Counted from the stretch's first letter, positions 28,327-29,152 are shown. The stretch is DNA of 64,000 nt from Escherichia coli (GCF_030013205.1 NZ_CP122648.1); one strand, 5' to 3'. Translations and numbers: made by a program. The notes: generated by a model from the letters alone, not told the origin.

Positions 28327-28473
28327 ATTGCGCTCCTGATTGTTGCAGGTAGTGTCTCTCTTCGAAGCGGATAAGTCAAAAACATATATGGTTTAACGAA
28401 TGTGTATGTGCAGAGGAAGGTAATAGGTGTGAATTTTGAGTTGGCTATTTATTTGAAAGGAGGTCTGAATCAG

Positions 28474-28565
28474 GACGTAAAAAAACCGACTTTGCGTCGG
28501 TTTTTTACTTTCCAGCCCTGAGTTGGTGGCTCTGGCCGGAGTGAGAATGCCCACATCTAACGGTT
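28474..28565 (-). ncRNA. agrB: AgrB-like antisense sRNA of the dinQ locus (boundaries approximate)
   Basis: Repeat unit carrying the 32-nt ctctggccggagtgagaatgcccacatctaac, identical to the dinQ 5' region; minus-strand transcript would end at the hairpin aaaaaaaccgactttgcgtcggtttttt. Confidence 0.55.
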
Positions 28566-28706
28566 CAATACTATTAGCCAGTGGCTAACATTGCAAGCGT
28601 TAGCGATTTCTTCAGCTGGCGAAGGGACAGTTTGCTATACATGTTGGTGAAAGAGGATTTATATACTTTCATCGGGTCGCTGCCGTACCAGGCCTTGTCC
28701 GAATCC

Positions 28707-28805
28707 GGACGTAAAAAAACCGACTTCGCGTCGGTTTTTTACTTTGCAGCCCAGAGTTGGTGGCTCTGGCTGGAGTGAGAATGCCATCATCTAACGCATC
28801 AATGC
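28707..28805 (-). ncRNA. agrA: AgrA-like sRNA, second repeat unit with mismatches to dinQ (boundaries approximate)
   Basis: Homologous repeat ctctggctggagtgagaatgccatcatctaac with three mismatches to the dinQ copy; same terminator hairpin. Confidence 0.5.
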
Positions 28806-29068
28806 TAATACCATACTGAAACTATTGCAAGGACATGCTGGTTTTATAACCTGTATGTACTGTATGATTATCCAGTTAGTTCTGAGGCATTTTCACTCTG
28901 GTAATGCGCATAAACGCTTTCAAAGTCCTGGTCAGAAGTACGGGTGGTGCCGTTAACTGATGCTCTGGCCGGAGTGAGAATGCCCACATCTAACAATGGG
29001 GCATGCGCCGTGACAGGCAGTGGATGAGTAAGCGGATGCATTCTCACTCCATCGCATGGAGAAAACGG

Positions 29069-29152
29069 GTGATTGATAAAGCAATCATCGTTCTTGGGGC
29101 GTTAATTGCGCTACTGGAACTGATCCGCTTCCTGCTTCAGCTTCTGAACTGA
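29069..29152 (+). CDS. dinQ: DinQ type I toxin, small membrane peptide
   Basis: GTG-initiated ORF encoding (M)IDKAIIVLGALIALLELIRFLLQLLN, which matches the DinQ peptide as I recall it. Confidence 0.7.
   Translation: MIDKAIIVLGALIALLELIRFLLQLLN

Follow-up and report, generated by a model that had tools for sequence, protein, structure and literature searches.

Positions 28479-29205 of the window, by which we mean the whole 64-kb stretch of Escherichia coli DNA under analysis, almost certainly hold the characterised E. coli dinQ/agrA/agrB type I toxin-antitoxin locus, here on the chromosome and in a rare allele common to strain ST2747. The locus was characterised by Weel-Sneve et al. 2013 (PMC3567139), who mapped its transcripts and its GTG start, and by Kristiansen et al. 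2016 (PMC5066626), who studied the switch in the dinQ leader using SHAPE, compensatory mutants, in vitro S30 translation and RNase III assays. Both the locus and its leader switch are thus already known, and the sole part that may be new is the pattern of matched alleles between dinQ and its two agr copies: allele pairing of dinQ with agr copies, or a swap of their positions, was not found described in the literature searched.

[quoted passage not shown] A first-pass annotation, made from the sequence, had named it dinQ/agrAB, and this identity is borne out by the Rfam family AgrB, the NCBIfam family toxin_DinQ, the RefSeq dinQ annotation and the K-12 gene order, all of which agree. Indeed, the order gor, dinQ, agrA, agrB, arsR and all orientations are the same in the window and in the K-12 MG1655 annotation, with a mean column identity of 96% in the alignment of the intergenic regions (92.7% by megablast), and the LexA box, the U44 region, sequence 3, the Shine-Dalgarno (SD) hairpin and the terminators are identical to those of the K-12 locus (PMC3567139, PMC5066626). 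Window positions 28300-29300 are 100% identical to E. coli ST2747 and find matches in 5,422 of 5,426 complete E. coli genomes. The frame that opens at GTG 29069 comprises 27 codons (VIDKAIIVLGALIALLELIRFLLQLLN) and scores 54 bits against the equivalog family NF041472 toxin_DinQ (cut-off 30 bits); together with the RefSeq dinQ annotation in an identical genome, this match upholds the GTG start that had been proposed for DinQ, and the peptide is identical in the window and K-12. Sequence elements, complementarity, family membership, conservation and predicted energetics are established for the window allele itself.

Table 1. Features of the dinQ/agrAB region and its flanks in window coordinates.
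Feature	Position	Strand	Basis or remark
arsR	27973-28326	-	ST2747 annotation
agrB antisense sRNA (antitoxin)	28479-28560	-	K-12 ncRNA b4713 mapped by alignment
agrB intrinsic terminator hairpin, AAAAAACCGAC/GTCGGTTTTTT	28480-28506	-	inverted repeat; terminal stem in Rfam consensus and MFE fold
Putative agrB promoter	28568-28596	-	read from the sequence relative to the mapped TSS 28560
gor fragment, 53 nt, relic in agrB-agrA spacer	28636-28688	gor orientation	83% identical to gor 29421-29473
agrA sRNA, agrB paralog	28713-28794	-	K-12 b4712 mapped by alignment
agrA terminator hairpin	28714-28740	-	inverted repeat and fold
Putative agrA promoter	28802-28830	-	-10 TAGCAT (28802-28807), -35 TTGCAA (28825-28830)
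Predicted LexA operator, TACTGTATGATTATCCAGTT (CTG-N10-CAG)	28858-28877	+	identical to K-12 operator (PMC3567139)
dinQ primary (+1) mRNA, 331 nt	28875-29205	+	published landmarks all fit with +1 at 28875
Sequence 1 (U16-28), stem S1 'lock' with sequence 2	28890-28902	+	PMC5066626 and window fold
U16-U19 run	28890-28893	+	+1 at 28875
U44, predicted 5' end of processed, translatable +44 mRNA	28918	+	mapped from K-12; flanking sequence identical
agr target repeat in dinQ leader	28962-28994	+	direct-repeat family; contains polymorphic patch 28980-28987
AgrB target G88-A119	28962-28993	+	+1 at 28875
Sequence 2, G94-G106	28968-28980	+	PMC5066626 numbering
Inverted repeat, left arm	28971-28983	+	in sequence 2, 3 nt beyond its end
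Inverted repeat, right arm	29038-29050	+	overlaps sequence 3; invariant in 23/23 E. coli loci
Sequence 3, anti-SD, U167-U178	29041-29052	+	PMC5066626 numbering
SD hairpin (3:4), CUCCAU-CGC-AUGGAG	29047-29061	+	sequence and PMC5066626
SD GGAG, nt 184-187	29058-29061	+	PMC5066626 numbering
GUG start, nt 195	29069	+	+1 at 28875
dinQ CDS	29069-29152	+	GTG start, 27 aa, single transmembrane toxin; RefSeq WP_001295215.1
dinQ terminator stem-loop (SL9)	29169-29199	.	12-bp inverted repeat; A295-U325 in PMC5066626
gorA	29206-30558	-	ST2747 annotation

The LexA operator overlaps the dinQ promoter and the +1 position, and at the other end of the transcript the dinQ terminator sits between the convergent genes dinQ and gor. 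Transcripts of ~330, ~290 and ~82 nt, the processing at +44, the AgrB-dependent cleavage by RNase III and the toxicity of the peptide are known from experiments in K-12/AB1157 (PMC3567139, PMC5066626), and from the K-12 experiments we infer transcription, +44 processing, toxicity and AgrB action for the ST2747-type allele as well. RefSeq also carries, in ST2747 and some other genomes, a 57-aa hypothetical protein antisense to the dinQ leader (WP_001316702.1; 28868-29041, minus strand). It has no match to an NCBIfam family and, overlapping the structured 5' UTR as it does, is probably a spurious call.

The two agr genes lie in direct repeats of 114 nt each (28463-28576 and 28697-28810), which are 89% identical and whose starts are 234 nt apart. 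The first-pass annotation had described two tandem units of ~100 bp; the repeats are there, but they are not strictly tandem, being separated by a 120-nt spacer. Its further observation that both units end in a common terminator hairpin was confirmed (AAAAAACCGAC-N5-GTCGGTTTTTT, at both terminator positions of Table 1), and the ends of the annotated K-12 agr genes, mapped onto the window, fall 5 to 11 nt from the transcripts it had predicted (28474-28565 and 28707-28805). Both sRNAs match the Rfam model RF02891 (AgrB) over its full length (model positions 1-84), agrB with 106.2 bits at 28477-28560 and agrA with 98.3 bits at 28711-28794 (gathering score 40), and agrB has a fold z-score of -4.7. 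They are divergent from dinQ without overlapping it, in the orientation and spacing known from K-12. The perfect match between the agrB-like unit and the dinQ leader, given earlier as 32 nt, in fact extends over 33 of 33 positions (28529-28561 and 28962-28994), and the agrA-like unit differs from the leader at three positions, as had been claimed (28763-28795; 30/33 identical). In terms of the RNAs, the 5' 32 nt of AgrB pair with dinQ nt 88-119 with 0 mismatches and a duplex energy of -68.5 kcal/mol, and AgrA with 3 mismatches in 32 and -53.3 kcal/mol. In K-12 the corresponding values are 31/32 matched positions and -58.2 kcal/mol for AgrB, and 7 mismatches and -42.7 kcal/mol for AgrA.

Putative promoters can be read upstream of both sRNAs. 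That of agrB would consist of a -10 hexamer TAGTAT (28568-28573) and a -35 hexamer TTGCAA (28591-28596) that lie 17 nt apart, the -10 being 7 nt away from the TSS; both hexamers are unchanged in K-12. The putative agrA promoter region is nearly invariant among 13 E. coli loci. A simple promoter and terminator scan left all the agr and dinQ signals uncalled, which does not count against them: with 8/12, the agr promoters fall short of its rule of 9/12, and the A/U-extended stems of the terminators use up the T-run that the scan needs. Within the locus, divergence from K-12 is highest in the spacer that separates the two agr units (23%, compared with 2.5-10% in the functional parts). This spacer contains a relic of gor (E=2e-12; local score 61 versus a shuffle maximum of 26), a hint that the agrB copy came from a larger duplication extending into gor. 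An origin by tandem duplication of agr-dinQ-gor' with later internal deletions was considered, but the 53-nt gor match is its one significant trace; the weaker matches collinear with it have E values of 4, which is noise level.

According to the mechanism published for K-12 and carried over to the window allele, LexA would repress dinQ until DNA damage leads to the 331-nt mRNA. This full-length mRNA would be translationally inert, as sequence 1 would hold sequence 2 and thereby lock the antisense target in a long stem, and a second block would arise from the pairing of sequence 3 with the SD in a small hairpin. The loss of the first 43 nt would delete sequence 1 and let sequence 2 pair with sequence 3; in this 2:3 duplex, which is the 13-nt inverted repeat, the SD would become free and the 27-aa membrane-depolarising peptide could be translated from GUG 29069. 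AgrB, constitutively transcribed from the opposite strand, would pair through its 5' 32 nt with dinQ nt 88-119 and so pull sequence 2 off sequence 3, upon which the SD hairpin would return and RNase III would cut the duplex.

The inverted repeat itself was noticed in the first-pass annotation, with coordinates (28969-28982 and 29038-29051) that are shifted by 1-2 nt from those found here: GGAGTGAGAATGC and its perfect complement GCATTCTCACTCC, 13 nt each. The 13-mer GGAGTGAGAATGC occurs 4 times in the 64-kb window where 0.07 occurrences are expected, and none of 100 shuffles reached 4. The repeat is not new but is the published duplex of sequence 2 and sequence 3, stem S2 of PMC5066626 (published extent G97-A105). 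Its proposed role, namely to sequester the antisense target or the ribosome binding site in the full-length mRNA, is very improbable, and the repeat appears to do the reverse. It is true that the two arms match each other without a gap or mismatch along all 13 nt, that the agr target includes the left arm and that the 2:3 duplex, once formed, covers part of the AgrB target. However, all four switch elements, whose pairings 1:2, 2:3 and 3:4 exclude one another, are found and are complementary in the window, and the partition-function fold of the +1 mRNA (331 nt) corresponds to the state 1:2 plus 3:4, with P(2:1)=0.99, P(SD:3)=0.98 and P(2:3)=0.00. In the +1 mRNA, a forced 2:3 core of 9 bp comes out +9.5 kcal/mol above the state with the SD hairpin; it is disfavoured there because sequence 1 keeps sequence 2 in a longer stem. 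Moreover, the right arm is the anti-SD, so that its pairing with sequence 2 releases the SD. The K-12 experiments (SHAPE, mutants and in vitro translation) likewise contradict sequestration and describe the opposite switch: the +1 mRNA is closed by 1:2 plus 3:4 and the +44 mRNA is opened by 2:3 (PMC5066626). On our analysis, the inverted repeat would hence act as an anti-anti-SD in the processed mRNA.

Truncation to +44 lowers the cost of the 2:3 core in the window allele to +2.0 kcal/mol, and across six natural alleles it falls from between +5.1 and +11.0 kcal/mol (+1) to between -2.5 and +2.8 kcal/mol (+44). In these models, +44 truncation would lift the energetic penalty on 2:3, which agrees qualitatively with the published model. 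Constrained energies were compared because unconstrained folding of the +44 mRNA misses the published open structure: there 2:3 is not dominant, P(2:3) being 0.10 in the window allele and 0.02 in K-12. The open +44 structure is therefore best taken from the published SHAPE data (PMC5066626), not from thermodynamic prediction alone.

Conservation was assessed in 12 aligned homologs (six E. coli alleles, E. albertii, Citrobacter, Kosakonia and three plasmid dql genes). At each position of the 9-bp 2:3 core, 10 to 12 of the sequences are paired, and the whole helix of 13 pairs is 83% paired versus 35-59% in slid controls. Covariation of 2:3 in these 12 homologs is no better than in column shuffles, 179 of 500 of which reach the observed score, and the support for 2:3 is conservation together with the literature, not compensatory change. 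The SD hairpin is 100% paired in the 12 homologs; part of its apparent covariation is due to the IncX4 sequence, which MAFFT misaligned by 1 column. Judged from the aligned sequences, the conserved element is the 9-bp core, and the length of 13 bp is peculiar to the window allele.

Whether this extra length matters is a separate question. The additional pairs A106-C109/G164-U167 could strengthen the active +44 form and make the allele leakier or more dependent on AgrB, an idea we consider unlikely. K-12 has the 9-bp core alone, and it is the patch change AATGC versus GAGAG that makes the extension; the ddG (2:3 minus 3:4) in the +44 mRNA is 2.0 in the window versus 2.8 in K-12, and the window allele is the sole one with a perfectly matched AgrB among 23 E. 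coli loci. Yet the difference of 0.8 kcal/mol is within the error of the method, and the positions of the extension are unpaired in 4 to 7 of the 12 homologs. The nucleotides concerned also have other potential partners: G164-U167 form the base of the conserved SL4 (PMC5066626), and in the window allele local pairing of nt 106-111 with nt 125-130 can give an extended SL3, in competition with the four extra pairs of the repeat. Finally, the same four pairs also become available to sequence 1 (GCAU, 28888-28891), and the lock is therefore strengthened equally.

The dinQ mRNA (331 nt) of the window differs from that of K-12 at 15 positions, six of which cluster in the agr target (28980, 28981, 28983, 28984, 28986 and 28987). 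The same six substitutions occur in agrB, at a constant offset of 433 nt (28547, 28548, 28550, 28551, 28553 and 28554). This shared six-base change points to gene conversion or co-selection of the toxin leader with its antitoxin, as far as the compared sequences can tell. Positions 28999 and 29001 (dinQ nt 125 and 127), in the 3' arm of SL3, change together with the patch though they lie outside the agr repeat. This arm reads GGGGC in the window, GAGAC in K-12 and AGGGC in L007/O157, and in the window allele nt 106-115 and nt 122-130 can form an extended SL3 of 9 bp. Intralocus gene conversion as the whole account of the allele mosaic was rejected, since the SL3 3' arm, outside the repeat, changes with the patch; it is also opposed by the loci L007 and L008, which differ over a wider K-12-like segment in a manner resembling recombination between strains.

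The pairing of dinQ and agr alleles was followed through 23 E. coli loci sampled at regular intervals along the megablast ranking, and the frequencies given here are estimates from such evenly spaced ranking rows. An 8-nt patch in the agr target (dinQ nt 106-113; 28980-28987 in the window, 28547-28554 in agrB) exists in at least six alleles among these 23 loci, and its changes in dinQ go together with changes in one agr copy. Wherever the dinQ promoter is intact, which is the case in 21 loci, one agr copy has at most 3 mismatches in 32. Among the 16 loci with two copies, 10, including K-12 and the window, have an arsR-proximal copy that fits dinQ better; in the other 6 (O157:H7 L005, L007, L009, L021, L022 and L025) it is the dinQ-proximal copy, i.e. 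that at the agrA position, which shows 2-3 mismatches versus 5-6 in the other copy. In each lineage, the copy with the better match may be the one that works as antitoxin. A single agr copy is present in 5 of the 23 loci. In L011-L015, 536 included, arsC adjoins the agr region, that side lacks arsR and arsB, and the left end of the similarity is at window position 28365. An E. coli-type dinQ/agr locus with the patch allele of L007 also appeared on a 1-kb contig of a metagenome-assembled genome labelled Lachnospiraceae (L031, contig CAAFJI010000131.1), most likely a mis-binned one.

Two readings of the agrA gene have to be weighed. One is that agrA and agrB are allele-specific antitoxins, not one working and one defective copy, and that the working copy differs by lineage; we give it an even chance. 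If true, the inactivity of AgrA in K-12 would be a property of the K-12 haplotype and not of agrA generally, and matched pairs in which the matched copy swaps position between lineages could explain the hitherto unexplained agrA gene. The other reading, which we hold to be possible though with a probability somewhat short of one half, is that agrA is a decaying, functionless duplicate in the window, as it apparently is in K-12, and that agrB alone matters. Indeed, K-12 AgrA neither alters the SD structure nor inhibits translation in vitro (PMC5066626), and in the agrB/dqlB pair of pOXA-48 a mismatch of 4 nt suffices to abolish antitoxin activity (PMC12365149). Against decay, AgrA of the window has 3 mismatches, not 7, and its duplex of -53 kcal/mol is near that of the working K-12 AgrB:dinQ pair (-58) and far from that of K-12 AgrA (-43); the best copy in O157:H7, 536 and A42 has 3 mismatches likewise. 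Furthermore, promoter and terminator of agrA hardly vary, while the spacer beside them is 23% diverged, and outgroup species carry their sole agr gene at the agrA position. Since AgrB is perfectly matched and AgrA has 3 mismatches, AgrA may, as far as base pairing indicates, also act as an antitoxin in the window strain. For comparison, T1TAdb mentions that a locus may hold two agr paralogs and selects whichever forms the more stable partner.

The outgroups with a single agr copy at the agrA position are E. albertii (L027), Citrobacter youngae (L029), Citrobacter sp. (L035) and Kosakonia sacchari (L036). The copy lies 305-306 nt upstream of the dinQ GTG, and its patch is matched or has at most 1 difference, the remaining mismatches falling in the GGAGUGAGA part of the target. 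The arsR-proximal copy is therefore the younger duplicate. Within E. coli, two loci (L014 and L015, at about 565-700) have lost 199 bp between the repeats of agrA and dinQ, equivalent to window 28795-28961. With this segment go the promoter of agrA, that of dinQ including the LexA box, and nt 1-87 of dinQ, whereas the DinQ reading frame is left intact. This deletion class makes up 8 of 60 evenly spaced ranking rows, or roughly 13% of complete E. coli genomes, and about one genome in eight thus appears to have lost both promoters through a deletion from repeat to repeat. Such a class bears on claims of a DinQ function common to all E. coli. Taken together, the natural alleles are a modest lead for specialists in type I toxin-antitoxin systems: they supply compensatory variants with which antisense specificity could be studied, as could gene conversion involving the toxin leader and its antitoxin.

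Among related systems, the closest parallels are on plasmids. The dqlB/agrB modules of conjugative plasmids (e.g. pOXA-48, PMC12365149) resemble dinQ in having a divergent AgrB-family sRNA with ~33 nt matching the 5' UTR of the toxin, and they share with it the SD hairpin and the complementarity of sequence 2 and sequence 3; they differ from it as plasmid addiction modules with other target patches and peptides. A search with the dinQ mRNA matched 2237 plasmid records, and each plasmid dql locus has an AgrB-family sRNA with its own matching patch. In pOXA-48 a compensatory change restores the antitoxin activity that the 4-nt mismatch abolishes (PMC12365149). The IncX4 plasmid pCV839-06-p2 carries two AgrB-family matches (L018 25-109 and 662-749; 55.7 and 64 bits) upstream of one dqlB, a two-antisense arrangement which resembles the chromosomal agrA/agrB. 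Outside the AgrB family, the literature allows a comparison with tisB/istR-1 of E. coli, which like dinQ is controlled by LexA, has an inert full-length mRNA that is processed at its 5' end (+42; dinQ +44), and employs a divergent, trans-encoded antisense RNA together with RNase III cleavage. By contrast, tisB relies on a ribosome standby site, its SD being closed after processing, whereas dinQ opens its SD via 2:3. Similarly, hok/sok with its fold-back inhibition, and zorO/orzO and shoB/ohsC with their 5' UTR processing, are described in the literature as having a primary toxin mRNA that is locked against translation as well as antisense binding until processing unlocks it, as in dinQ; the lock of hok, however, is a long-range 5'-3' pairing freed by 3' trimming, and the sequences are unrelated.
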